DNA of 64,000 bases, from positions 768,001 through 832,000 of the forward strand of contig OZ245020.1 of assembly GCA_965223865.1 (NCBI GenBank), read 5' to 3'. The position numbers and the translations under genes are program-made. Of the stretch, positions 1 through 13,434 are shown in pieces (the first letter of the stretch is position 1; every line of letters begins with the position of its first letter). The DNA comes from Nitrosarchaeum sp. GTDB taxonomy: Archaea > Thermoproteota > Nitrososphaeria > Nitrososphaerales > Nitrosopumilaceae. Under the pieces are notes generated by a model. That model had not been told where the DNA came from and did no database searches. It was given only the letters and a program-made list of their open reading frames with translations.

Positions 1-475
1 CAACTATGGATTTTACTGTTCTTCCTTGTATAAGATTGGCCTCAGAGGATTTTCTATATAGAAATGAGGCTCTTTCTATAATGGCATCGTTTAGGCCGAG
101 TTTCTCCTTTAGTTTACTCATCTCGCCAAGTGCAATGCGCAGATTGCGCTCAGAAGTGGACTTGACCTTGCTCCTGGAATCCCAGACCCTCATTCGTTTT
201 AATGCATGCCGCATCTCCAGGACTAGCGGCTTTCCATCTGAGTCACAGTCAACTTTGCCAATCATGGTAGATAAGCCTCGATCATGCATTGTCAAAGATG
301 TTGCCGCCCCCGTTCTTGCATTTTCCATAAAATTATCATGAAATATTTCAGCACGTTCATCACTGATTCTTTGTTCGATTACTTTTCCGCACTTTGTACA
401 GATTTTTTCTCCTCTGTCTTGATCATATGCAAGTTTCTCATGAGAACAAGAAAGCAGAAAAGAAGATCGTTGCAT
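1..475 (-). CDS. tfb: Transcription initiation factor IIB paralog (3' part runs off the window)
   Basis: Manual translation MQRSSFLLSCSHEKLAYDQDRGEKICTKCGKVIEQ...ARTGAATSLTMHDRGLSTMIG...MRVWDSRSK...ERNLRIALGEM...GRTVKSIV shows the Zn ribbon, B-reader/linker and start of the cyclin fold. Absent from the ORF track because it has no stop in the window. Confidence 0.93.
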   Translation of the reverse strand, partial: MQRSSFLLSCSHEKLAYDQDRGEKICTKCGKVIEQRISDERAEIFHDNFMENARTGAATSLTMHDRGLSTMIGKVDCDSDGKPLVLEMRHALKRMRVWDSRSKVKSTSERNLRIALGEMSKLKEKLGLNDAIIERASFLYRKSSEANLIQGRTVKSIV

Positions 476-476
476 G

Positions 477-665
477 TTACTTTCTCCTTATTGGAATTTC
501 TAGTAACTGGTAATGTGGTTCAATCAACATGCATTGAAAGTGAATCTGTTCTTCTGTAACGTTACTGCAGCGATGGCAGAAAAATTGGTTTGCTTCTCTG
601 CATATGTCGCATTTTTTGTTTACTTCTTGCTCTGTTCCACATTTTCTACACAAGTCAATTCTCAT
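477..665 (-). CDS. Double zinc-finger microprotein, copy 1 (CxxC-x9-CxxC-x7-CxxC-x8-HxxC)
   Basis: 62 aa, 8 regularly spaced Cys/His; two paralogs in the window; stop codon 1 nt before the tfb start. Confidence 0.85.
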   Translation of the reverse strand: MRIDLCRKCGTEQEVNKKCDICREANQFFCHRCSNVTEEQIHFQCMLIEPHYQLLEIPIRRK

Positions 666-703
666 GTTGCAATGTTACGTTTCTAATTGATTTAAATGAT
701 ATG

Positions 704-739
704 AAAATTAGATGCCACTAATTAGAAGAAGCTAATTAG
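704..739. promoter_or_regulatory. Phased CTAATTAG-type box array (3 boxes, 14-bp period)
   Basis: AAAATTAG 704, CTAATTAG 718, CTAATTAG 732, just upstream of the TATA-like TTTAAA (691-696) of the 477..665 gene. Confidence 0.6.
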
Positions 740-792
740 TGCAAGCTATTTGCTCTCATTTTATAGAATCAGAATGATTCTGGAACTATGTT

Positions 793-1137
793 ATGTTTAA
801 TTATAATTTCAGCTCATTTCACATAATGACAACACAGACTGCATTACTGCAAGAAAAAAAACTTTGGGTTATAGTAAACACACTGAAAGAAAACGTGTCT
901 GATGCAGAACTAGAACATGTCAGTTCCTCCATGAAAGAACTGATTGATGATTGGCATTCACAACAAAGATTTGTTTGGTCTGGTTCGTTGGACGATAACA
1001 AAACTGGAATGGCAATCTTTGAAGGGACTGATGAGGAAGCGAAGGAATTCTTTGAGAAGAATAAAAAAGCATGCTCTGGTGTCCTAGACTCTAGTCTTCA
1101 GCAATGGAACGCCATGCCGTTTCTTTCGCTGTTATAA
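793..1137 (+). CDS. YciI/muconolactone isomerase-like dimeric alpha-beta barrel protein (start probably 826)
   Basis: WSGSL...GMAIFE..EEAK pattern resembles YCII-like proteins. Confidence 0.5.
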   Translation: MFNYNFSSFHIMTTQTALLQEKKLWVIVNTLKENVSDAELEHVSSSMKELIDDWHSQQRFVWSGSLDDNKTGMAIFEGTDEEAKEFFEKNKKACSGVLDSSLQQWNAMPFLSLL

Positions 1138-1150
1138 CCTTTTTTATTTT

Positions 1151-2116
1151 TTGTACAAGATGATAAACAAAGGCAAAACCACAACAGCAGCAAATGGCAG
1201 CAATCACATAAGATCTGATGAATACTCTCTTTTTGAGCAATGCCCTGAATCACAATGCAAGAAAGGGCCCATTATTGCAGATGAGAGTACAGGTGACGTA
1301 ATTTGTGGCACTTGTGGCTTGGTGCTAGTTGAAAAGAGCACAGACATGAGGGAGGAATGGAATAATTTTGAAGGAAAGCAGGATAAAACCAGGGTAGGGG
1401 CAAAAACTAGCCTGGTAATCCATGACATGGGCTTGTCTACTGCCATCAAGCCTGTTAACAAGGATGCAGGAGGAAACCGTCTGTCTTTTGAGGCAAGCAG
1501 GCAGTTTCGTCGTCTTCGTATCTGGGACAACAGAAGCAAGACAAGCTCAAGGGAACGTTCGCTGCGTACTGCATTTGTCATACTAGACGGTATGGCAGAC
1601 AAGCTTGCATTGCCTGATATTGTGTCTGAAACTGCAGCATACTATTACAGAAAAATAAAGTCAAGAAATGCAAAGACAGGCAAATCTACAGCAGCGCTGG
1701 TATCGGCGGCACTTTATGCAGCCTGTCGTTTTACCCACACACCAAGAACATTGCAGGATATCGCCAAAGTTTCAAACATCAAGAAAAAGAGCCTTCAAAA
1801 GACATATCGAGATCTGGTAAAACAGCTAGACTTGCAGTTCCCGTCATATGATCCTGTTGCATTTGTAACAGGGCTATCCAGCAGAATCAAGGCAAGTGAG
1901 CAATCAAGAAGATTGGCCATTAAAATTTTGGAGGAGGCAGAAAGGAAAATGCTTCTGACAGGAAAGAATCCAATGGGAATGGCAGCTGGCGCATTGTACA
2001 TTGCATGCATCAATAATCTGGAAAACATTCCGCAGGCCGTAATTGCAAAAGAATCCGGAATCAGTAGTGTAACAATAAGGCATAGCTGCATGTCTCTCAA
2101 AAAAATAAAATTTTAG
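1151..2116 (+). CDS. tfb: Transcription initiation factor IIB paralog
   Basis: CPESQC..CGTCG Zn ribbon, HDMGLST, LRIWD, two cyclin repeats, GKNPMGMAA. Confidence 0.95.
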   Translation: MYKMINKGKTTTAANGSNHIRSDEYSLFEQCPESQCKKGPIIADESTGDVICGTCGLVLVEKSTDMREEWNNFEGKQDKTRVGAKTSLVIHDMGLSTAIKPVNKDAGGNRLSFEASRQFRRLRIWDNRSKTSSRERSLRTAFVILDGMADKLALPDIVSETAAYYYRKIKSRNAKTGKSTAALVSAALYAACRFTHTPRTLQDIAKVSNIKKKSLQKTYRDLVKQLDLQFPSYDPVAFVTGLSSRIKASEQSRRLAIKILEEAERKMLLTGKNPMGMAAGALYIACINNLENIPQAVIAKESGISSVTIRHSCMSLKKIKF

Positions 2117-2210
2117 AATTTCTTAAAAAAATAAACTTAATTTTTGTCGGAATAAACAGGATAAATAGAATTTTTGCATTGAAAACAATTTCTGATTACA
2201 AGTATTTGGA

Positions 2211-2246
2211 AAAATTAGAATGGCCTAATTAGCTTTTTCTAATTTT
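2211..2246. promoter_or_regulatory. Phased CTAATTAG-type box array (3 boxes, 14-bp period)
   Basis: AAAATTAG 2211, CTAATTAG 2225, CTAATTTT 2239, followed by TATA-like TTTTTAA and ATG 2284. Confidence 0.6.
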
Positions 2247-2283
2247 CACATTATTTTTAAGACACATTATCTATACATGTTTC

Positions 2284-2472
2284 ATGGAAAATAAATCATG
2301 CAAGATTTGTAACTCAAATCTTGAAGTAGAAAGAAGATGTAAATTCTGTGATGAGCCAACAAGATTGTTTTGTCATACTTGTGGGATAATGGCAGAAAAG
2401 ATGAGTCATCCTGCATGTATGATTATTGATGCAAACACAATGCTGTTAGAAGCTCAGATTCACAGAAATTAA
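2284..2472 (+). CDS. Double zinc-finger microprotein, copy 2
   Basis: 62 aa, same Cys/His spacing as 477..665. Confidence 0.85.
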   Translation: MENKSCKICNSNLEVERRCKFCDEPTRLFCHTCGIMAEKMSHPACMIIDANTMLLEAQIHRN

Positions 2473-2564
2473 TTTTTATTTTCATTTATTTTTTTCAATA
2501 TGTCTGATGACTTGATGTTAATATTCAAATCCTAAAATAAAAAGATAAGATTTTTGAGATGCAA

Positions 2565-2957
2565 TTATTTTACATGAATCTTACACGTTTTAAAAAGATC
2601 TTTGGTTTTGTCTGCCAAAGTTGCAGCATCAGAATCAGGTTCTGCTGAAATCAAAACAATGTGGTCATACATGGGAACACTTACCATCATAACTTTGCCT
2701 CTTTTGGATGCAGTATAATCAATTGGGCCTAGCGTTTCATTGTATTCTTTTCTCATACTTACATCCAAGCTTATCTGCATGTACATCATTTTCATTTTCT
2801 CTTCGGTTTCATACGGTTCTAGATTCTTCCTAAAACCACCAGCAACCAAGTGTCCCATACTGTTAATGACTCCTGCAAACCTAACTTTAGGATCCTTGTG
2901 CATCTCATTACAAGCGTCTTCTAAAGATTTGTTTTGCTCAAAAGTCAGTAGAGGCAT
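2565..2957 (-). CDS. DUF6659-like (roadblock/longin-like) thaumarchaeal protein
   Basis: DPKVRFAGVINSMG.L.AGG pattern; paralogs at 22776 and 50852. Confidence 0.75.
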   Translation of the reverse strand: MPLLTFEQNKSLEDACNEMHKDPKVRFAGVINSMGHLVAGGFRKNLEPYETEEKMKMMYMQISLDVSMRKEYNETLGPIDYTASKRGKVMMVSVPMYDHIVLISAEPDSDAATLADKTKDLFKTCKIHVK

Positions 2958-3039
2958 TTTCGTTTTGCAGTATGGTAAATCAAAAATAAATTTCTTTCTT
3001 CAAAATTATATCTTCAATAAAAGAAAAAAGAAAATGGAA

Positions 3040-4686
3040 TCACATATCCATTCCAGGCATTCCGCCCATGCCACCCATTCCTCCTCCTGGAGGTCCTGGG
3101 GGAGCTGCGCTTTTGCTTCCTGCTATGACATCATCGATTCTAAGAATCATACATGCAACTTCGGTTGCCCCATTGATTACTTGCTCTTTTACAGCCAAAG
3201 GATCGTAAATGTCGCTATTTGACATGTCTGCAACATTTGCGTTTTCCACATCTATGCCATAGACGGCTTTTCCGTCAGTTGCCTTTTGCCTAAGCTGTAC
3301 CTGGGCATCAAGTGGATCCATTCCTGCGCTTTCAGCCAGGATCACTGCCATGTTCTCAATGGCGTCTGCAAACTTTTGGGCTGCTAGTTGAGAGCGTCCC
3401 TCAAGAGTGTTTGACCAGTACCTTAGCTTGTTTGCAACAAACGCTTCGGGAGCTCCTGCACCTACTAGTGCGTGTGGGTTTATTACCACGTCCTTTACTG
3501 CCATCAAGGCATCATGGATGGAACGGTCAACCTCGTCGACTATCCTTTGAGAACCTCCACGAACCAGAATGCTTACAGCTTTTGGATTCTTGCATCCTTC
3601 GATGAATACCCACTTGTCTGTCTCAACTTCTCTTTCTTCGGCAAGCTCAGCTGATCCAAGATCGTCTTTTGTTAGCTCTGCAATGTTTGTGATTACTCTA
3701 GCACCTGTTGCTTTTGAAAGTTTTATCATGTCACTTTCCTTTATTCTTCTTACTGCCATTATGCCAGCTTTTGTAAGATAATGTTGTGCCATGTCATCGA
3801 TTCCTTTTTGACATAACAGAACGTTTGCACCAGATGCAGATACTTGATCAACGAGTTTTTTGAGCATCCTGTTCTCCTCATCTATGAACTGTTGCATCTG
3901 ATCAGGAGAGTTGATGTTGATCTTTGCATCAAACTCTGTCTTTTCAATTTCTAGCGGACAGTTCACAAGAGCGATCTTTGCAGTCTTGATCTGTTTTGGC
4001 ATTGCGCCATGTACAATTTCTTTGTCCAATATGATCCCCTGGACAAGCTCAGTTGATTTCATGGAGCCTCCTGCCTTTTTCTCTACCTTGATGTTGTCAA
4101 TGTCTACCTTTGTTTTGTTATTTTGTTTTTCACTTACCGCAAGAATAGCTTCTACTACAACTTCAGATAATATCTTGGAATCGGATGTAGTGATTTTAGA
4201 TTCCATTGTAGTCTTTGCTATCTTTTTGAGAAATGCCTTGTCTTGTGGATCTACCTTAACTGCTACACTTCTTAGAATTTCCAATGCTTTGTCAGCTGCT
4301 TTTTTGAAACCATTTACCACTATTGTAGGATGAACATTTTTTTCTGTCAGCTCTTGTGCTTTTTCTAACAGAGAACCAGCTAAAATTACTGTAGATGTGG
4401 TACCATCTCCTACTTCATTGTCTGTAGTCTTTGAGATCTCAACCATCATCTTTGCTGCTGGATGTTGAACATCGATCTCCTTGAGAATTGTAGCGCCATC
4501 GTTTGTAATGGTTACATCTCCCAGAGAATCGACAATCATCTTGTCCATTCCGCGTGGACCTAGGCTTGTCTTGACCAATTCGGCCACCAGCTTTGCAGCT
4601 TGGATATTGTTTTTTTGGGCATCATGCCCTTTTGTTTCAGTTGATCCTTCCTTTAGAAGGACAACAGGTAATTGTTGTTGTGACAT
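3040..4686 (-). CDS. ths: Thermosome (group II chaperonin) subunit
   Basis: [26 protein letters not shown]-rich tail. Confidence 0.98.
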
Positions 4687-4729
4687 TAAATCATCAAATG
4701 CAATTAATTACAAATCCGTTATTTTAATT

Positions 4730-4747
4730 TTGTCATACATATGACAA
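4730..4747. promoter_or_regulatory. Inverted repeat TTGTCAT-N4-ATGACAA in the divergent ths/hsp20 promoter
   Basis: Perfect 7-bp arms; ATGACAA recurs upstream of the other chaperone genes. Confidence 0.55.
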
Positions 4748-4821
4748 TCAGTCAAATACAAAATATATGTACAAAATCTTTAAATTATGTAACACACATT
4801 ACATACACTCAGTGATTAATA

Positions 4822-5331
4822 ATGTGGTTTGATGATACATTTGATCGAGAATTTCGAAGAATGTCGGACCGCTTTTTTAACTGGGATGACATCTTTGAAA
4901 ACAATTGGTTTGGAAACCGACCAATCCAAACAGTAGGTCCTCATTACTATGGTTATACCATGACAATCGGGCCAGACGGAAAACCAGTAGTCAAAGAGTA
5001 TGGCAATTATAAACCCGGAGGAAGACCTTCTGCCCTGTCTTCAGGGACATCTGAACCATATGTAGATGAGGTCCTTGACAAGGAAAACAATTTGCTCAAA
5101 TTAGTAGCAGAGATACCTGGTGTAGAAAAATCAGACATTCAGGTTTCAGTGGATGGGAAAGCCGTTTCACTGAAAGCAGAAAATGATAATCGCAAGTACG
5201 AGACTCATGTTCCATTAAAGTACAAAGTTGATGAGAACTCTGCCAAGGCACAATACAGAAACGGAATCCTTGAACTGACATTCAATCTTGCAGAAGAGAA
5301 ACTAAAAGGCAGAGTTGTGTCAGTAGAATAA
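4822..5331 (+). CDS. hsp20: Archaeal small heat-shock protein Hsp20
   Basis: YYGYTMTIGPDGKP.VKEYGN, AEIPGVEK, A.YRNGILE. Confidence 0.95.
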   Translation: MWFDDTFDREFRRMSDRFFNWDDIFENNWFGNRPIQTVGPHYYGYTMTIGPDGKPVVKEYGNYKPGGRPSALSSGTSEPYVDEVLDKENNLLKLVAEIPGVEKSDIQVSVDGKAVSLKAENDNRKYETHVPLKYKVDENSAKAQYRNGILELTFNLAEEKLKGRVVSVE

Positions 5332-5347
5332 CTCGAGGTGAAAGAAG

Positions 5348-5476
5348 ATGAAGGACAACTATTCATCTATCTCAAAAATCAAGGATTCCCTTAGATCCTC
5401 AATTGCTAGTCTCCTCGTTTCCAGAAGAGACCATCAACAAGTGGAAGATTGGAAGAAGAAACTTTCCTTGAGGTAA
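5348..5476 (+). CDS. Microprotein, 42 aa (MKDNYSSISKIKDSLRSSIASLLVSRRDHQQVEDWKKKLSLR)
   Basis: GAGGTGA SD at 5335-5341; directly after hsp20. Confidence 0.55.
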   Translation: MKDNYSSISKIKDSLRSSIASLLVSRRDHQQVEDWKKKLSLR

Positions 5477-5482
5477 AAGAAA

Positions 5483-5602
5483 TTGTCTAATGCCACTTGT
5501 GCGAGTCGAAGAACAACAATCCAATCTGGAAGGAGGGGAAGATCTGTCTTCCTCTCTTCTTTGGCCGTTGAACGAGTGAAACTGCAATGGAGGTCACAGT
5601 AG
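5483..5602 (+). CDS. Possible 39-aa micro-ORF (TTG start) or frameshifted Zn-finger remnant
   Basis: GAGGTA SD-like element; fills the gap between neighbours; an overlapping frame reads CHLCESKNNNPIWKEGKICLP. Confidence 0.35.
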   Translation: MSNATCASRRTTIQSGRRGRSVFLSSLAVERVKLQWRSQ

Positions 5603-5618
5603 TCTTAGGTGAGCGACC

Positions 5619-5738
5619 ATGAAATGCTATCATGCTGTACTGCTAAGTCAATCACCATCACGAATCAAATACAAGTGCATGTACTGTGATGAGGTATTTT
5701 CCGTGAAAAAATTGAAAACAAGTCTGAGAGGAATGTAA
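5619..5738 (+). CDS. Zinc-ribbon microprotein, 39 aa (MKCYHAVLLSQSPSRIKYKCMYCDEVFSVKKLKTSLRGM)
   Basis: CxH...CxxC; AGGTGAG SD upstream. Confidence 0.7.
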   Translation: MKCYHAVLLSQSPSRIKYKCMYCDEVFSVKKLKTSLRGM

Positions 5739-5741
5739 AAG

Positions 5742-5855
5742 ATGGCAGAAGGACAGGGTTGTAATTTATGTAGTAATGAACATGACGGTAACTTTTACAG
5801 ATTTTGTAAATGTACATGCCATGATAGAATTGCAAGGCAATCTGTTGATCCATAA
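5742..5855 (+). CDS. Cys/His-rich microprotein, 37 aa (MAEGQGCNLCSNEHDGNFYRFCKCTCHDRIARQSVDP)
   Basis: CxxC-x3-H...CxCxCH; starts 3 nt after the previous stop; T-rich tract follows. Confidence 0.72.
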   Translation: MAEGQGCNLCSNEHDGNFYRFCKCTCHDRIARQSVDP

Positions 5856-5917
5856 ATCATTTTAGTTATTATTGTTTTTTCTAAAATTTTTGAATCAAAA
5901 TGTTTTGCATAATAATT

Positions 5918-5933
5918 ATATGACAAGTCATAT
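5918..5933. promoter_or_regulatory. Palindrome ATATGAC-AA-GTCATAT upstream of the second hsp20
   Basis: Perfect 7-bp arms containing ATGACAA. Confidence 0.55.
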
Positions 5934-6003
5934 CTATCAATAACATTATCAAATTAGAAAATCTAACTTGCAAATTAAGTATCAGAAAATTCTTTTTTTG
6001 TTG

Positions 6004-6483
6004 ATGGCTACAAAAAAACCTGTAAAACGAGAATCAGGTCTAGTTCCATTTTGGACATCAAGTTGGGCAGACATTGACAAGTCAATTGAAAACCTGAGAA
6101 AGGATATGGAAAGAGCATTCTCATCATTTCCATCAATGTCTATGCCCAAAATGCCAGAGGCATCTTGCGATGTTATTGATGAAGGTAACCAATTCCGTGT
6201 GAAAATGGATGTTCCAGGCGTAAAGAAAAATGAGATCAGCCTCAATGTGACTGATAACTCCTTGGAAGTGTCAGCAGAGCACAAGGAAGAGTCTGAGGAA
6301 AAGAAGAAAAACTATCTAAAAAAGGAGAGAAGCCATGTCTCATATTATAGGACGTTGCCAATGTCCGAAGACGTAGTTTCAGGTAAAGTAAAGGCAAAAC
6401 TAACTGATGGGGTACTTGACATCATTCTGCCAAAAGCAAAACCAACCAAAACACAAAGGAAAAAATCAATATCAGTTCAATAA
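6004..6483 (+). CDS. hsp20: Small heat-shock protein Hsp20 (alpha-crystallin); ORF track start 5968
   Basis: DVPGVKK, KER....YR.LP, A.L.DGVLDI.LPK, ISV C-terminal IxI motif. Confidence 0.95.
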   Translation: MATKKPVKRESGLVPFWTSSWADIDKSIENLRKDMERAFSSFPSMSMPKMPEASCDVIDEGNQFRVKMDVPGVKKNEISLNVTDNSLEVSAEHKEESEEKKKNYLKKERSHVSYYRTLPMSEDVVSGKVKAKLTDGVLDIILPKAKPTKTQRKKSISVQ

Positions 6484-6522
6484 CCAACTTTTTTATTTTT
6501 TATGTCATAATACACAATCCTG

Positions 6523-6747
6523 ATGAATTATTTTCCAGAACCAAGTTGGCAGGACATACAATCATTTCTTGAAAAAGAGGGTTTTGTAGAAATAAAGTTT
6601 AATGAGAACTGGTATGTCTTTATGCAAAAGGGAAACAAGAACATACGAATTCCAAAACTAAGTAAAATTTCAAGACCGTGCTTAGAGAGCATAATTCAAG
6701 CATCTGACGTGGACAGAGATAGTTTTTTGAATTCATTGAAGAAATAA
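6523..6747 (+). CDS. HicA-like (dsRBD-fold) small protein
   Basis: SWQDI..FL..EGF...V.M.K....I.IP....I....L.SII.A.....F pattern; GSH motif absent. Confidence 0.55.
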   Translation: MNYFPEPSWQDIQSFLEKEGFVEIKFNENWYVFMQKGNKNIRIPKLSKISRPCLESIIQASDVDRDSFLNSLKK

Positions 6748-6776
6748 AAGATGAAATCGACAATTAGAAAATTGTT

Positions 6777-7166
6777 ATGAAAAAGAACAACTCTTCGGAT
6801 AAAATAGAAACAAACACATCATCATTGTCATTTGGAATAAGTAGTGATGAGCTATACAACATGCTTAAGACAAATGATGCGTTATTTTTACTTGATATTA
6901 GGAACCAAAATGAATACAAATCAAAACACATACAGGGTTCGGTGTTGGTTTCGTCATATCACAAAACTGATTTGGGCATGGTACCAAATATTGAAAATTC
7001 CAACAAAACACTTGTATTGATCTGCAGGAACGGAACAGAATCTAGTCAATACGCAGACATTCTTAACAAAATGGGAATCAAATCAAATTATCTGATTGGT
7101 GGAATCGAGGGATGGAATCACAGTCTGTACCATCCGTCATACATGATAGGTGAAAAATTCTCATAG
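6777..7166 (+). CDS. Rhodanese-like sulfurtransferase
   Basis: LLDIR...EY...HI.GS, CRNGTES loop, L.GGIEGW. Confidence 0.9.
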   Translation: MKKNNSSDKIETNTSSLSFGISSDELYNMLKTNDALFLLDIRNQNEYKSKHIQGSVLVSSYHKTDLGMVPNIENSNKTLVLICRNGTESSQYADILNKMGIKSNYLIGGIEGWNHSLYHPSYMIGEKFS

Positions 7167-7216
7167 ACGATAGCAGTCAAATCATTTATTATATTCAATT
7201 TCAAATTCTCTGCGAG

Positions 7217-7648
7217 TTGAAAGTAAAAAGGATACTGGTGCCACTTGATGGTTCAGAGACTTCACTTCATTCTCTAAAATATGCCATTGATTTGGCAAAA
7301 CAATGTGATGCCTCCATCTTAGGCCTACATGTAATTACTGACATGAGCCTATTTACCGCAGCTCATGCAATAGTAGTAAAAGAAGACAAATGGCCAAGTC
7401 ACGTATCTGATTTTATGAAAGAGGCACAAAGTTTGGCAGAAAAAAAGGATGCAAACTATGAGCAACTAGTCATAGGCGGAAAGACTGCAGGATATGACAT
7501 TCTCACATTTGCCGAAAGCAAGACCAATGCAATTGACCTGATCATAATGGGTCGAAGGGGAAGGAGTTTTCCAAAAGAAGTGTTTTTTGGAAGTACGACC
7601 AATTTCATAATTCACAAATCCAAGGTTCCCGTTCTAGTTACAAGATGA
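7217..7648 (+). CDS. usp: Universal stress protein
   Basis: ILVPLDGS, DLIIMGRRG, FFGSTT, VPVLV. Confidence 0.93.
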   Translation: MKVKRILVPLDGSETSLHSLKYAIDLAKQCDASILGLHVITDMSLFTAAHAIVVKEDKWPSHVSDFMKEAQSLAEKKDANYEQLVIGGKTAGYDILTFAESKTNAIDLIIMGRRGRSFPKEVFFGSTTNFIIHKSKVPVLVTR

Positions 7649-7817
7649 AATAATACATTCTTTAGATTTTTGCAGTGTATAAGAAATTAGTTTACAATTT
7701 ACTGCTCACTAACCAATATACTTGATTTGGATAATGAAATTTTCAAAAACGAGTATTGATTCCTAATCTTGGTTTTAGATTACAACATTAAAAGATTACA
7801 AAATCCATATCGGCAAC

Positions 7818-9065
7818 GTGGTAACTGAGTTTGATGTAGTTCCTACCATTATTGGCATTTTGGTTATTGTCATTCCTTCCATGCTGCTTGGAAGACTATG
7901 TGCTAGATTTCGAATATCTGAAATATTTGGATACATCATGGGCGGGATTATTTTTGGCCATTTTGCGATTGGCGGGTTGATTTCGTTTCATGATGAACCA
8001 ATAGTTATAATGGACGATCTAATGCTGTCAATTTGGCAAATCTCAGGAATAGTAATTTTGTTTTCGGCAGGACTGCATTTTACATTTCATGATCTGCGCA
8101 GGGCAGGAATGAAGGCAGCATCGGTAGGAATTGGTGGTGTTGTAGTGCCACTGATTCTGGGATATTTTGTTACCGGTGGTTTTGGATACGAATGGCAAGC
8201 TGCAATAATTATAGGGGCCACTCTAAGTGCCACCAGTATCGCAATTTCTGTAACATCCCTAGAGGAGCTCAGAAAAGAAAAGACCACTGAAGGAAATGTA
8301 CTTGTCAATGCGGCAGTATTGGATGATGTTTTAGGAATTGCAATTCTGTCTGCAATTCTTTCAATCATAGTGACAAACTCTCTTCCTACAATCGAAACAA
8401 TCACTCTACAGACTATCGAATCTATCGGATTCTGGTTTGTGTTGTTGTTAGGAGCAGTATTTTTGCTACCAAGAATTGTGCATGCAACAACAATTGCCCA
8501 TCCAACCTCAATTGAATCACGTGGCATAAACCAAGCTGTGGCCCTAGGCTCTGCTTTTGGACTTGCTGCAATCGCAGGAGGTCTTGGTCTGAATCCAATA
8601 ATTGGAGCGTTTGCAGCTGGCATGGGATTAGCAGGATCCAAGCTAGCAATGCAAGCGCGTGAATTTGCTGGAAGACTCAAAGTAATTTTTACACCATTGT
8701 TTTTTGCAGTGATTGGTGCGCATGTGAATCTGGGCAGTATTTTTGATATTAACATTGGCGTGTTTCTTGGTATTTTAGGAGTTGCAGTAGTCAGTAAAAT
8801 TTTAGGTTGTGGAATTCCGGCATCATTTTTGCTAAAAAATCGCAAGAAGGGTTTGAGGGTAGGCTATGGAATGATTGCAAGAGGAGAGATAGCATTTGTT
8901 ACAGTTGGATTTGGTTTGTCTTATGCTGTGATTGACCAAACACTGTATTCTACCATGATCTTTGTTGTTTTGGCTACGATTTTCATTACACCAGAACTTT
9001 TGAGATTATCTTACAGAAATCAGAATTCTAATCGTCATAAATCCAATAAAACCAAATTCAAGTAA
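7818..9065 (+). CDS. Cation:proton antiporter (CPA2, NapA/KefB-like)
   Basis: Many TM helices, LF.AGL, SATS, AAVLDD, GMIARGE. Confidence 0.93.
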   Translation: MVTEFDVVPTIIGILVIVIPSMLLGRLCARFRISEIFGYIMGGIIFGHFAIGGLISFHDEPIVIMDDLMLSIWQISGIVILFSAGLHFTFHDLRRAGMKAASVGIGGVVVPLILGYFVTGGFGYEWQAAIIIGATLSATSIAISVTSLEELRKEKTTEGNVLVNAAVLDDVLGIAILSAILSIIVTNSLPTIETITLQTIESIGFWFVLLLGAVFLLPRIVHATTIAHPTSIESRGINQAVALGSAFGLAAIAGGLGLNPIIGAFAAGMGLAGSKLAMQAREFAGRLKVIFTPLFFAVIGAHVNLGSIFDINIGVFLGILGVAVVSKILGCGIPASFLLKNRKKGLRVGYGMIARGEIAFVTVGFGLSYAVIDQTLYSTMIFVVLATIFITPELLRLSYRNQNSNRHKSNKTKFK

Positions 9066-9341
9066 TTTGAAAAAATTTAGCTATTTTAGTATGTTATAGT
9101 TAAAACAAAAAAACAAAGATTTTATGCATTTTAAATGAAAGTAATCCTTGAGAATTTGATTTCTGTTCTTTGGATTTTTTAAATAATTTACAATTGGGTC
9201 GTTACAAATTAAACATGAAAAAAATTCCATGATGAATTATTGATATTATATGAATATACTAGTATCACTTTTGAATATTTAATCAAATCTCATGTAATCT
9301 ACAACTATGATTGTGTAATCTGTTTTTAACGAAAAAAACAC

Positions 9342-9435
9342 TTCCATGTGGGTCTAATTTACAATACCATAACTACATCCCCATGCAGGATATGTGGGGG
9401 ACTAGTTTAGGGAGGATTTCCAGACCCACATGGAA
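9342..9435. repeat. Nested inverted repeat / long hairpin (candidate ncRNA or MITE)
   Basis: Perfect 14-bp IR TTCCATGTGGGTCT / AGACCCACATGGAA enclosing AACTA..TCCCC / GGGGA.TAGTT. Confidence 0.6.
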
Positions 9436-9555
9436 ATAAAAATTATAAAATAAATGAAAAAAATTAATCGATTAGCATTCTGGCCATGTACCAAATCGTG
9501 TTTTCTTGTATCTAATTTTCATTGTTTTCATCTTCTCTTAGAACACTAAGTTAAA

Positions 9556-9890
9556 TCACTTGTATGCTTCCAATATTTCGGCTTCAAACGTTGGTTCTGA
9601 CTTTCTTTTTTTGAGTCGTTGCCTGACGTTAATTAGGGAATTATTGATTTGGTATTCTAATAGATACAGTGAAGTTTCTATTGTCTCTAACATATATCAA
9701 AATCATCCTCCTTTGCAAAGATCCAAGACAATCCTATCAAATCCATCGCATTGATTCTGAGCATGTTATCAGTAGGAAGAGCGTTTTTGGCATCACTTCC
9801 ATCCAAACATGATGATTGTATTTGACTCGTTTTTTCTGATTCATATTTTTTGTTTAGCATGATTTGTTGTATCATGAAATGATTAGCCAA
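9556..9890 (-). pseudogene. Frameshifted hypothetical gene
   Basis: 67-aa ORF continues in another frame as MLETIETSLYLLEYQINNSL...EILEAYK*; the shift falls in an ATATAT run near 9692. Confidence 0.5.
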
Positions 9891-10029
9891 TATCAGCTAA
9901 TTAAGACAGAAGAATTTTGAATAAAAATTATCTATAATTAACTAGTTGATTTGCATCAGAATAAAGTCAACTCATTTGTAAAAAGATTAACCGATGGGAA
10001 TAATAGAACAGACGCACGCGATTAATGTT

Positions 10030-10670
10030 TTATGTTACATCAATTGAAAATTCAAGTTGCAGACTGAGTGCCATTGGATTATCCAAACTATGCCAAACAA
10101 ATATTGTAGCAGCATATTTTCCTGCACTCTCAGGAATCCATGATACTGCAGGTCAAAAAGTCTGTCCCGTAACCAGTTTTCCTGTAATCCATGATAAGGA
10201 TTGTACTGCCTCTGATGAGTCCTGAATCTGAACCAAATATGTGAAGGGTTGATCTGTAATGTTTTTGTTTGCAATGTTGGCTGTAATCTGAATCTGTTGA
10301 TTGATCTTGATTTGAGTGATGTTGTTGCCAAACGAATCAATTACTTTGTGGCTTGAGACAGGTACCCTTTCTAATGGAGGGATAACAGGTCCAACAAAGG
10401 TGCCCGCTGAAATTTTGAGATCATCTGTCTTGGTGTATGGTTTTGGTAATGTATTGTCTTCATATTTTGCAGTTACTGTATCGCCATCAGATACACGAAG
10501 TCTATGGCCTGAAGATTGATCCTTGCTTGAAAAAGTGACGTGTCCCTCAAATATTCCGGTTGCAGGACCCGTCTCAGTTACTGCCAAGTCAATGCCTCCA
10601 GTCCTTGGGTTTCTATCTGCATCATGTTTGAAACCAGTCAGGATTACCTCACCTGCAAATAAACTCTAAG
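10030..10670 (-). pseudogene. Fragment of an S-layer-like exported protein gene
   Basis: GEVILTGFKHDAD, GGIDLAVTETGPATGIFEG, TA.YEDNTLP, and a frameshifted C-terminus PAVSWIPE.AG.Y.ATIFVW..LDNP.AL; N-terminus missing. Confidence 0.75.
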
Positions 10671-10690
10671 ATGTCCTGATTGTAGAAATT

Positions 10691-10858
10691 TCAGCATAAA
10701 GTTGCATTCTGACATTTTAACTCACACTCAAAGTGAATCTGTTCATCCACGTACTTGTGGCACTCAATGCATTGAAATTGGGTTGGCTGCTTGCAGCACT
10801 CGCATGATTTTATAACAGCAAGTGAGTTTCCACAGTTTCTACAAGAATCGATTCGCAT
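10691..10858 (-). CDS. Double zinc-finger microprotein, copy 3, 55 aa (MRIDSCRNCGNSLAVIKSCECCKQPTQFQCIECHKYVDEQIHFECELKCQNATLC)
   Basis: Manual translation; shares MRID.CR.CG and EQIHF.C with 477..665. Confidence 0.85.
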   Translation of the reverse strand: MRIDSCRNCGNSLAVIKSCECCKQPTQFQCIECHKYVDEQIHFECELKCQNATLC

Positions 10859-10896
10859 TACTATGATATGTTGATGTTAATACATTACACTTGGTC

Positions 10897-10908
10897 AGCT
10901 GATCAGCT
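10897..10908. promoter_or_regulatory. Palindrome AGCTGATCAGCT between divergent microprotein genes
   Basis: Perfect 12-bp palindrome about 40 bp upstream of 10858; variant of GCTAATTAG. Confidence 0.45.
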
Positions 10909-10965: not shown

Positions 10966-11124
10966 ATGAAAACAACAACTCAGATACAAAAAACCAGCAA
11001 CTGGGACAAGATGGTCCATGCCCCTTTCAGAAAAGTAATCAAGTTTGACTTGATCTGTATGGGACTTGGTATTGTAATGGGTATGGGCCTTGGTGCCTTT
11101 TTAGTTGCAGGAGGAGGAGCATAG
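10966..11124 (+). CDS. Membrane microprotein, 52 aa (MKTTTQIQKTSNWDKMVHAPFRKVIKFDLICMGLGIVMGMGLGAFLVAGGGA)
   Basis: Manual translation; Gly-rich hydrophobic C-terminal helix. Confidence 0.7.
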   Translation: MKTTTQIQKTSNWDKMVHAPFRKVIKFDLICMGLGIVMGMGLGAFLVAGGGA

Positions 11125-11150: not shown

Positions 11151-12143
11151 TTGGGTGTGAATAAGACAATGATGAAGTTTACCAAAGTTGAACCAGCATA
11201 TACCTCAAAACATGGATGCAGGTTGGTATGGGAAGGAATCGACGAGGATGATTCAGACACAGTAATACTGAACAAAGATGAGCTTGATTCGCTTGTAGAG
11301 ATTCTAAAAAAGGACAAGACGGGTACAATAACACTAGAGGATCAGATGAGCTTCATTCTGGTAAACTCTGATGTCACGCAATTTATGTTACAGGGTCACG
11401 GACCACTGGAAGCTGACACATTTGATTTACAAAAACAAGTTTTAGAGTACGCAAAAATTCCTCACGAGCCTCAGTATGTCTACATTAATCCAAAAGAATT
11501 CTATCCTTCTGTATGGATAAGAAAAGAAGAAGAAAACTCTTCTGGACAACCAAACAAACAAAAATCAAAACCATCATTATTGCAGGCTATTTTATCCTCA
11601 GACCCAGAGAAAAAAGATCTGTCTCCTTCAGACTCTGACGTGTTTCGTATATTTTCAACAAGACGTTCTACCAGAAGATTTGCAAAAAATAAGATAGAAG
11701 ACTGGAAGGTTGACAAGATACTGGCAGCAGCTGACACTGCACCAACTGCAGGAAACTTTCAGGGTCTCAAGATATTTTACGTAAAAAATAACAAAACAAA
11801 AGAAGCATTAGTCGAGGCTGCAAATAGACAGCCGTATGTGAACGCTCCTCTTGTCCTGGTGTTTTGCATGGATCCATCCAGAGTGAATCTGAAATTCCCG
11901 CCGGAGATACTGGAAAAGTTTTCGATGCAGGATGCAACGTTAGCAGCTGCCTATGCGCAGATTGCAGCCTCAGGATTGGGCTTGAGCTCCATCTGGATAG
12001 GCATGATTGACGAAGAAAAGGTAAAAAATATTCTTGGAACCAAATTAAGACCGTCTTCCATTCTCTGCATTGGATACCCTGACAAGAAAAAGCCACCAAA
12101 ATCAAGAAGAAAACTCAAAGAATTAATCGAGGTCATTGAATAG
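11151..12143 (+). CDS. Nitroreductase-family protein with an extra N-terminal domain
   Basis: RRSTRRF, APTAGN.Q, GLSS.WIG, IGYP in the C-terminal half. Confidence 0.9.
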   Translation: MGVNKTMMKFTKVEPAYTSKHGCRLVWEGIDEDDSDTVILNKDELDSLVEILKKDKTGTITLEDQMSFILVNSDVTQFMLQGHGPLEADTFDLQKQVLEYAKIPHEPQYVYINPKEFYPSVWIRKEEENSSGQPNKQKSKPSLLQAILSSDPEKKDLSPSDSDVFRIFSTRRSTRRFAKNKIEDWKVDKILAAADTAPTAGNFQGLKIFYVKNNKTKEALVEAANRQPYVNAPLVLVFCMDPSRVNLKFPPEILEKFSMQDATLAAAYAQIAASGLGLSSIWIGMIDEEKVKNILGTKLRPSSILCIGYPDKKKPPKSRRKLKELIEVIE

Positions 12144-12633: not shown

Positions 12634-13434
12634 ATGAGTGACCTCATTGATGAGACTGCAAACTATGTTTTAGATCTTGCAAGCCCACAAAGATTGTCAA
12701 TACTATTCAAACTGCTTGAGAAAAACTATACTCCAACTGAGATTGCAAAAAAACTAGAGTCTACAAAACAAGAAGTTCATAGAAATTTCATCAGGCTGAC
12801 AGAAAGTGGATTAATCGAGAAAAATGTTGATGGAAAATATTCTCTTACGACATTTGGTGAAGTTGTGTGCACTCAAGTACCTACACTAGTGTTTTTGTCT
12901 CAGAACAGAAAATATTTTGAGGAGCATAGCTTTGGTGAAATTCCTCACAAGTTCAAGATGCGATGTGGGCAGCTTGCCAGCGGAAAGCACATCAAAGGTT
13001 TTTCTAAAGTGATAGAAAAATGGAAATTAATCTACAAAAATGCTGATGATTACATCTATGAGATACTCTCTGAAGTTCCACTTGATTTGATTGAACCGCT
13101 AGTCAGACGCGTTAAGAAAGGAGTGAAATTCAATTACATCTTCTCCGAATCAATAGTTGTTCCAGAAGGACGTAAGTCGTTGTTAAAGAAACTTGGATTT
13201 GACAAGCTTGTAGATAAGGGACTAGTAGAACGCAAGATGGCAGATAATGTACAGACGGTACTGGTCCTCAGTGAAAAGGAAGCCTGTGTCTTGTTTCCAG
13301 ACAAAAACGGAGAATCTGACATCAGTGAGATGTTTTATTCTGATGATCCAATGTTTCATGAGTGGTGTCTTGACTATTTCAGGTACTGTTGGTATGGCTC
13401 TGATGCATTCAAGGAAAGCAAGTTAAAAGAATAA
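12634..13434 (+). CDS. ArsR-type wHTH regulator with C-terminal sensor-like domain
   Basis: LAS.QRL.IL, T.QEVHRN, Y.LTTFG, FHEWCLDYF; paralog at 17151. Confidence 0.88.
   Translation: MSDLIDETANYVLDLASPQRLSILFKLLEKNYTPTEIAKKLESTKQEVHRNFIRLTESGLIEKNVDGKYSLTTFGEVVCTQVPTLVFLSQNRKYFEEHSFGEIPHKFKMRCGQLASGKHIKGFSKVIEKWKLIYKNADDYIYEILSEVPLDLIEPLVRRVKKGVKFNYIFSESIVVPEGRKSLLKKLGFDKLVDKGLVERKMADNVQTVLVLSEKEACVLFPDKNGESDISEMFYSDDPMFHEWCLDYFRYCWYGSDAFKESKLKE

Follow-up and report, generated by a model that had tools for sequence, protein, structure and literature searches.

The 64,000-nucleotide (nt) stretch of Nitrosarchaeum sp. DNA analysed here (the window; assembly GCA_965223865.1, contig OZ245020.1, positions 768,001 to 832,000) encodes three members of a family of zinc-finger (ZF) microproteins of 45–80 amino acids (aa) with eight conserved, predicted metal ligands (C4 plus C2HC), which is so far known only from Nitrososphaerota. 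One of the three, copy 1, lies immediately upstream of a gene for a paralogue of TFB, in an arrangement kept across four genera. It is tentatively proposed, with rather less than even confidence, that the family is a small protein-binding regulatory module of stress-linked transcription control, with copy 1 acting on its TFB. In this mechanism, copy 1 would be made from one transcript with the accessory TFB paralogue and would act on that TFB or its pre-initiation complex, which it would either support as a required cofactor or oppose by titration; other lineages of the family would do similar jobs elsewhere, some of them tethered to the membrane like a one-component signal transducer or an anti-sigma factor; and tandem CTAATT(AG) boxes, placed immediately before the TATA box, would bring many copies under common control. 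Both the binding to TFB or polymerase and the direction of the effect are predictions of the scheme.

The three open reading frames (ORFs) were recognised by frame and motif at 477..665 (− strand, 62 aa; copy 1, the first gene of the ZF-to-TFB pair), 2284..2472 (+ strand, 62 aa; copy 2) and 10691..10858 (− strand, 55 aa; copy 3), and they align without gaps across their first 55 residues. The CxxC-x9-CxxC-x7-CxxC-x8-HxxC spacing that the first-pass annotation had read from them is present in all three, with C6, C9, C19, C22, C30, C33, H42 and C45 invariant. The family does not stop at three members, as that annotation had supposed: a profile built from copies 1–3 finds nine clear copies at E ≤ 5.4e-9 and one weak 45-aa copy in the window's genome (G000; 2.01 Mb in 4 contigs; other G numbers denote comparison genomes, g numbers genera and L numbers loci). 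Among 201 genomes of the class, a set that takes in one genome flagged unpublished (G132), the profile search gives matches in 108, with 1–10 copies per genome: 95 of the 114 genomes that share the window's family, 11 of 14 from a second family, where the scores were weaker, and a single one of the 73 others. When 1.84 billion representative proteins were searched with a profile, 329 matched at E ≤ 1e-3 and 62 at ≤ 1e-10, the best 150 of the 329 being mostly 46–90 aa in size; the named homologues are all 'hypothetical protein' entries of Nitrosopumilus or Nitrosopumilaceae with no Pfam domain, and a protein atlas, from which copy 1 itself is absent, gave for a homologue only unnamed 'hypothetical protein' clusters of Nitrososphaerota. 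In an alignment of 78 family sequences, C6, C9, C19, C22 and H42 never vary, while C30 and C33 occur in 77 sequences and C45 in 74, so that the eight Cys/His residues at fixed spacing expected of a two-zinc-site finger are conserved. Comparison with the orthologues of a genome of the same genus (G082) gave a ratio of nonsynonymous to synonymous substitution (dN/dS) of 0.03 for copy 1, where synonymous sites are saturated (dS 2.5), and of 0.245 for copy 2, and the orthologue of copy 3 stands there in the same gene context. Because of this conservation and the dN/dS values, chance ORFs can be ruled out, and the three ORFs are judged to be real, constrained genes. The family is split into about ten old paralogue lineages, each with its own gene neighbourhood.

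One line of evidence for the proposal is the pairing of copy 1 with its TFB. The 5′ part of the TFB gene occupies 2..475 on the − strand (Pfam Zn_Ribbon_TF and TFIIB), and the full gene, encoding 300 aa, reaches G000:C1:767573, beyond the start of the window. Between the stop codon of copy 1 (479..477) and the TFB start codon (475..473) lies only one base, which is the 1-nt spacing from which an operon had first been suggested. The same order, a copy 1-type ZF gene and then a TFB gene on the same strand, was found in 12 genomes of four genera (G000, G082 and G189 of g1; G096, G108 and G188 of g3; G016 and G106 of g5; G157, G161, G239 and G260 of g18), and the gap between the ZF stop and the TFB start is 1–9 nt in ten of them, the called frames overlapping in the remaining two (G239 and G260). 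In a TFB tree, the ZF-paired TFBs form one clade, with a ZF directly upstream in 9 of its 11 unique members. The suggestion of an operon thus gains weight from tight packing kept across four genera and within one TFB clade. Co-transcription is the simple reading because the 1-nt spacer is too small for a promoter and a promoter-like region lies upstream of the ZF gene, and we infer from this spacing that copy 1 is probably co-transcribed with its TFB. Two runs labelled metatranscriptomic but flagged 'probably DNA' contain small parts of a close relative; one 269-nt contig from them (372..640) spans the junction, which is no proof of a single transcript.

Proximity to TFB genes extends beyond this pair. 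As the first-pass annotation had advised, the profile built from the three copies was searched across genomes of the class and the distance to tfb scored, and the family proved widespread, with TFB neighbours enriched. For this purpose, all family matches and all TFIIB-repeat matches were located in 11 complete genomes, TFB spans being estimated from the repeat matches and expected proximity being computed from the 102 TFB genes and the genome sizes. Of the 81 family copies, eight have a TFB gene at a distance of about 200 nt or less (0.23 expected) and 14 have one at 2 kb or less (1.76 expected). In a clustering of the neighbours in 77 regions of ±3 kb, TFB was the most frequent family (16 genes in 14 regions), followed by Hsp20 (10 regions) and a winged-helix regulator of 266–275 aa (9 genes in 8 regions), although these counts are not independent, some G000 regions overlapping and related genomes sharing arrangements. 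Convergent ZF/TFB pairs occur in genus g14 and divergent pairs in g17 and g58. In the second family (Nitrososphaeraceae), two genomes (G183 and G199) encode, directly after a TFB gene, a family member of 71–82 aa with a hydrophobic C-terminal tail (L208 1465..1713; L209 1504..1719), and these tail-anchored members have H-x2-H as their last ligand pair; a third tail-anchored copy (L206) lies at least 1.5 kb from any TFB gene. The convergent, divergent and tail-anchored adjacencies look independent of the copy 1 pair.

Membrane anchoring recurs in fusion proteins of about 212 aa, which begin with the ZF and continue through a basic stretch and a transmembrane helix into a conserved outer domain; this domain spans about 100 aa and contains two invariant cysteines. 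Such fusions make up 64 protein clusters (examples are P0130, P0132, P0137, P0168 and P0174), and full-length forms are found in genera g8, g14 and g16 (L076–L087), with none in G000. By analogy, their layout is that of a membrane-tethered signal transducer. The bacterial ZAS anti-sigma factors have a small cytoplasmic zinc-thiolate domain, sometimes with a membrane helix and an outer domain, and are encoded beside the extracytoplasmic function (ECF) sigma factor that they control; their signature is HxxxCxxC. The apparent operon layout and the membrane-anchored forms of the present family fit this picture, whereas there is no homology, HxxxCxxC is absent and the putative partner is a TFB, not a sigma factor. 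To go further and regard the family as the archaeal counterpart of the zinc-thiolate anti-sigma factors, that is, as 'anti-TFB' or TFB-escort proteins, soluble or membrane-tethered, that would detect thiol, oxidative or nitrosative stress through their zinc sites and would release or activate alternative TFBs, with the CTAATT-box regulon as wiring, is a speculation by analogy that we consider improbable.

The TFB beside copy 1 has the first knuckle of its Zn ribbon reduced to C-x-H, and in its closest relatives the knuckle is likewise reduced to C-x-H or a single Cys (SCSH, FCGH, SCYH and SCSE), whereas other TFBs have CxxC. A comparable situation has been described in Sulfolobus, where TFB3, a truncated TFB paralogue and small Zn-ribbon factor, acts in trans with TFB1, whose own ribbon is non-canonical (PMC6101594). 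According to the portion of that account drawn on here, a small four-cysteine zinc-ribbon factor is combined there with a full-length TFB at promoters, and in the present case a small, putative zinc protein is co-encoded with a reduced-knuckle TFB. The parallel is suggestive only, because the sister TFB subclade, which is also ZF-linked, keeps CxxC. Moreover, TFB3 is a TFB homologue with a coiled coil, whereas the present family is without profile similarity to TFB (see below), has eight ligands instead of four, is multi-copy and apparently operon-encoded with a TFB, and has an activity that is predicted.

None of the known families compared accounts for the microproteins. No Pfam or NCBIfam model reaches its cut-off with copies 1–3 (the best Pfam model is zf-B_box, at 16.8 bits versus 24.1, and the best NCBIfam score is 15.5 versus 40), the zinc-finger families considered being B-box, DZR, Zn_ribbon_6, RCKP rubredoxin-like and the dual-CXXC small protein, and a profile search of solved structures gave nothing better than E 0.005. 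A match to a characterised family with an unrelated role, which had been named as a ground for abandoning the idea, was therefore not found in Pfam, NCBIfam or solved structures. An AlphaFold2 model of copy 1, based on the 78-sequence alignment, has a mean predicted local distance difference test (pLDDT) score of 82.4, exceeding 90 across residues 11–40, and consists of two short strands (14–18 and 25–29) and a helix (43–55) beginning at the HxxC pair. Foldseek gave no match to this model at E ≤ 0.001, its list being dominated by Rpb9/TFS-type ribbons at E 0.2–1 (Rpb9 and TFS4 ribbons at E 0.5–0.9). In a wide structural search, the best match was ZifS (TTHA0897), a small zinc-finger protein of Thermus thermophilus (8yoz; Z 3.7, root-mean-square deviation 5.3 over 58 residues), followed by the NrdR ribbon (Z 3.0), with the TFIIB N-terminal domain at a generic-ribbon level (1pft, Z 2.6; 1rly, Z 2.0) and a Dof domain (Z 2.5) also among the matches; Z scores of this size are what the tool rates as a 'common arrangement'. 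With ZifS, which is known here from its entry title only and for which no publication was found in a literature search, the identity is 14%, and its score too falls in the common-arrangement range. As modelled, then, the domain is a zinc-ribbon-like finger with no convincing known relative, and the eight ligands are most simply read as two predicted zinc sites on a core that resembles a zinc ribbon and leads into a short helix. Ligand losses in the alignment never fall in pairs that are informative for sequential versus cross-brace pairing. The net charge of the core is about neutral (median 0), and a protein-binding role would fit such a domain better than a DNA-binding one.

Several observations weigh against the proposed role of the family in TFB control. 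Two members of the ZF-linked TFB clade, G106:C4 and G016:C15, have an unrelated 109-aa ORF upstream in place of the ZF, and close relatives of copy 1 in genus g5 adjoin a winged-helix regulator, not a TFB. In the 11 complete genomes, 67 of the 81 family copies have no TFB gene within 2 kb, so that TFB linkage of the whole family has to be rejected; random placement relative to tfb, named beforehand as a refuting outcome, does not fit the enrichment close to TFB genes (8 versus 0.23 expected). The Poisson figures themselves overstate the significance because related genomes share adjacencies, leaving few independent events. Adjacency to Hsp20 or thermosome genes (8 of 11 genomes) is about as conserved as adjacency to TFB. 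The fold matches to the model are weak and generic, the best of them reaching only Z 3.7, and a profile–profile comparison by hhalign of the 78-sequence family with 20 TFBs gave a probability of 4.3% over 17 columns. Zinc binding, which the ligand pattern would suggest for the family, is not a foregone conclusion either, as a predicted Cys4 site of haloarchaeal microproteins is not always zinc-bound, and AlphaFold2 cannot reveal whether such sites hold metal, according to the part of PMC11241148 drawn on here. Finally, boxes before family genes are also what is expected of an autoregulating DNA binder. Separately, a detached fragment or duplicate of the TFB zinc ribbon was considered as the origin of the family and rejected because the profile–profile probability is only 4%; Pfam Zn_Ribbon_TF does not match the microproteins.

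The boxes just referred to were read directly from the DNA. Upstream of copy 1, three CTAATT(AG) boxes 14 bp apart stand on the − strand at 739..732, 725..718 and 711..704, with a TATA-like ATTTAAAT (697..690, − strand) outside the box span and before copy 1; before copy 2, two CTAATT boxes (2225..2232 and 2239..2246, + strand) precede a TATA-like TTATTTTTAAG (2251..2261, + strand). Copies 1 and 2 have in common the element CTAATTAG-N6-CTAATT, just upstream of the TATA-like box about 28 nt before the ATG, and the box element of copy 2 had 0 matches in 100 shuffles. In G000, CTAATT-N8-CTAATT has 10 matches on both strands at six loci, against about 1.4 matches expected, and four of the six loci precede family genes; in five further genomes there are 36 matches versus 8 for the reversed pattern, and by coordinates the 36 group into 22 loci, of which 12 immediately precede family genes. 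Of 83 unique family genes, 16, from several lineages of genera g1 and g3, have two or three boxes at −59/−45 or −74/−60/−46 from the ATG, and copy 3 and most other copies (67 of the 83) are without them. The pattern looks like a small candidate regulon with leaderless transcripts. The boxes of copy 1 lie in the 127-nt region between copy 1 and a divergent 114-aa ORF (793..1137, + strand), for which no Pfam or NCBIfam match above cut-off was found and which ends 13 nt before a second TFB gene; by this arrangement, two oppositely oriented 'small ORF then TFB' units may share one control region. Further box sites in G000 are at G000:C1:290032-290051, 1281806-1281825, 1475616-1475635 and 1225564-1225595, and non-family genes with boxes include that of a 95-aa membrane protein (a recurrent locus in G000) and a glyoxalase-like ORF (named by sequence only). 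Short contigs of run X3 join 726/737 (the box region of copy 1) to 2225 (that of copy 2) and omit the roughly 1.5 kb in between, most likely because the repeated box links the two sites in the assembly graph and not through a deletion.

The main rival explanation takes these boxes as its starting point. The microproteins would be small sequence-specific DNA-binding transcription factors that bind their own CTAATT(AG) boxes for autoregulation and control nearby stress genes, and the adjacency to TFB would be just one of several neighbourhoods. The fixed positions of the tandem boxes relative to the ATG in several lineages, and the large share of box-pair loci that precede family genes both in G000 and in the five further genomes, speak for such a factor, as do the several copies that are divergent from a neighbouring operon (e.g., copy 3 and the nitroreductase/regulator genes) and the presence, among the weak fold matches, of the NrdR zinc ribbon and the Dof domain. 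However, the core is about neutral in charge and matches no DNA-binding finger convincingly in fold or sequence, copy 3 and most other copies have no boxes, and another regulator, such as the winged-helix protein encoded in eight of the neighbour regions, could bind them; the tight pairing with one TFB clade would also be left unexplained. We regard this explanation as somewhat unlikely, and hold to the tentative reading of a protein-binding module acting, in the case of copy 1, on its TFB.

For the other two copies in the window, the relation to TFB is weaker or lacking. Copy 2 follows a second TFB paralogue (1151..2116, + strand, 321 aa; Pfam TFIIB E 7.5e-33) on the same strand, 167 nt downstream, in agreement with the first-pass annotation. 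The 167-nt gap holds T-rich stretches after the TFB stop and then the box-plus-TATA region, and the matching locus in same-genus G082 (L114) has no TFB, the TFB neighbour of copy 2 being found in G000 only. The nearest relatives of copy 2, in a noisy tree, stand by thermosome/Hsp20 genes (G082), in an Hsp20/regulator/nitroreductase cluster (G096) or by a secreted-protein gene, and the Hsp20-adjacent copies of genera g2, g3 and g14 fall on other branches of the same tree. A coupling of copy 2 to its TFB is thus not borne out, with a genome-specific neighbour, a promoter-like region of its own and such relatives. For copy 3 there is no TFB link: it is divergent from an operon comprising a small membrane ORF (10966..11124, + strand), a nitroreductase-family protein (11151..12143, + strand; Pfam Nitroreductase E 9e-23) and a winged-helix regulator (12634..13434, + strand; Pfam HVO_A0261_N/FilR1/ArsR-type HTH), a context kept in genera g1, g3 and g5. 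The case for the TFB–microprotein module originally envisaged for all three copies is strong where copy 1 is concerned but weak for copy 2, and for copy 3 there is none. Conserved neighbours of other lineages are a methyltransferase with large secreted proteins, nitroreductase with DUF6659 and, in a further lineage, agmatinase-like and ThrRS-like genes, the last two being named by sequence with no family search.

Neighbourhoods of this kind lend themselves to another explanation, in which the microproteins are zinc-thiolate stress proteins, either redox/nitrosative switches or holdase-like helpers of Hsp20 and thermosome, with no direct role in initiation. In 8 of 11 genomes an intact family member has an Hsp20 gene no more than 3 kb away, and in five the two genes are immediate neighbours; the window itself contains a run of stress-type genes (2565..9065) that includes a DUF6659 protein (2565..2957, − strand; Pfam), a thermosome (3040..4686, − strand; Pfam), two Hsp20 genes (4822..5331 and 5968..6483, both + strand; Pfam), a rhodanese, a universal stress protein and a 415-aa multi-pass membrane protein. 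Nitroreductases are conserved neighbours, the glyoxalase-like ORF carries boxes, and, when three ammonia oxidisers form biofilms, a nitroreductase-domain protein increases along with TFBs, according to the portion of PMC12448741 drawn on here. Against this, no similarity to DnaJ-type fingers or Hsp33 was found in Pfam, several lineages stand by unrelated genes (the methyltransferase, and the agmatinase-like and ThrRS-like genes), and the TFB-clade operon together with the membrane-tethered forms favours signalling over chaperoning, so that a stress-protein role for the family appears to us doubtful at best. A different cellular role, such as that of a zinc-ribbon protein binding RNA or the ribosome, with TFB adjacency as inherited gene order, is suggested by fold lists in which zinc ribbons of ribosomes and polymerases abound (with scores at chance level), by the distance of most copies from TFB genes and by an adjacency resting on few ancestral arrangements, but it is quite unlikely, since gaps of 1–9 nt kept in four genera despite saturated synonymous sites (dS 2.5) are hardly a neutral leftover and the adjacency arose in several orientations and in two families.

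The present family is worth comparing with the zinc microproteins of haloarchaea, which are likewise archaeal, shorter than 70 aa, furnished with CxxC pairs and encoded many times over in each genome; HVO_2753, for one, has two predicted fingers (PMC11241148, as far as drawn on here). Archaeal zinc-finger microproteins as a class are thus already known from that source. In those proteins, however, the pairs are C(P)XCG, compared with CxxC-x9-CxxC-x7-CxxC-x8-HxxC here; no sequence relationship was found between the two, and the present family was found only in Nitrososphaerota in the searches made. A TFB operon and common promoter boxes form no part of the haloarchaeal account in the portion of PMC11241148 drawn on. 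Newly found here are the tandem CTAATT(AG) boxes before many family genes and the membrane-anchored forms, two of which are encoded directly after a TFB gene. A literature search, mostly at title and abstract depth, found no TFB-coupled zinc microprotein, anti-TFB factor or dedicated TFB partner.

Ammonia-oxidising archaea possess many TFB paralogues, and we know of nothing on how the activity of these paralogues is controlled. Their expression switches in biofilms of ammonia oxidisers, as described in the part of PMC12448741 consulted, which makes no mention of zinc or small proteins. The unit of microprotein and TFB, with its membrane-anchored relatives and the common promoter element, provides a testable handle on TFB control, and a practical one: the proteins are tiny and easily expressed, the putative partner among the TFBs is defined, and a short palindrome is at hand as candidate operator. 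If binding to TFB were true, the family would be, as far as found, the first dedicated family of TFB partners or antagonists in archaea, and, should the improbable anti-TFB role also hold, it would constitute a partner-switching layer above the many TFB paralogues of ammonia-oxidising archaea. Regardless of TFB binding, a widespread unannotated gene family and a regulon-like motif are added to the genomes of Nitrososphaerota.

Some further observations concern the surroundings of family members in G000. Two family copies map shortly before the start of the window, to G000:C1:765890 and G000:C1:757846, and just upstream of the former are an Hsp20 gene and a 729-aa ORF resembling a Cdc48-type ATPase (G000:C1:762847-765589; judged by its N-terminal sequence only). 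Paralogues of the 114-aa ORF at 793..1137, of 104–114 aa, adjoin family members at G000:C1:287842-288156, where the weak 45-aa family copy follows after 25 nt, and at L157 (G047). A broken TFB paralogue may lie at G000:C1:1440256-1440699, where a TFB-like match contains an internal TGA and its open frame is short (145 aa).

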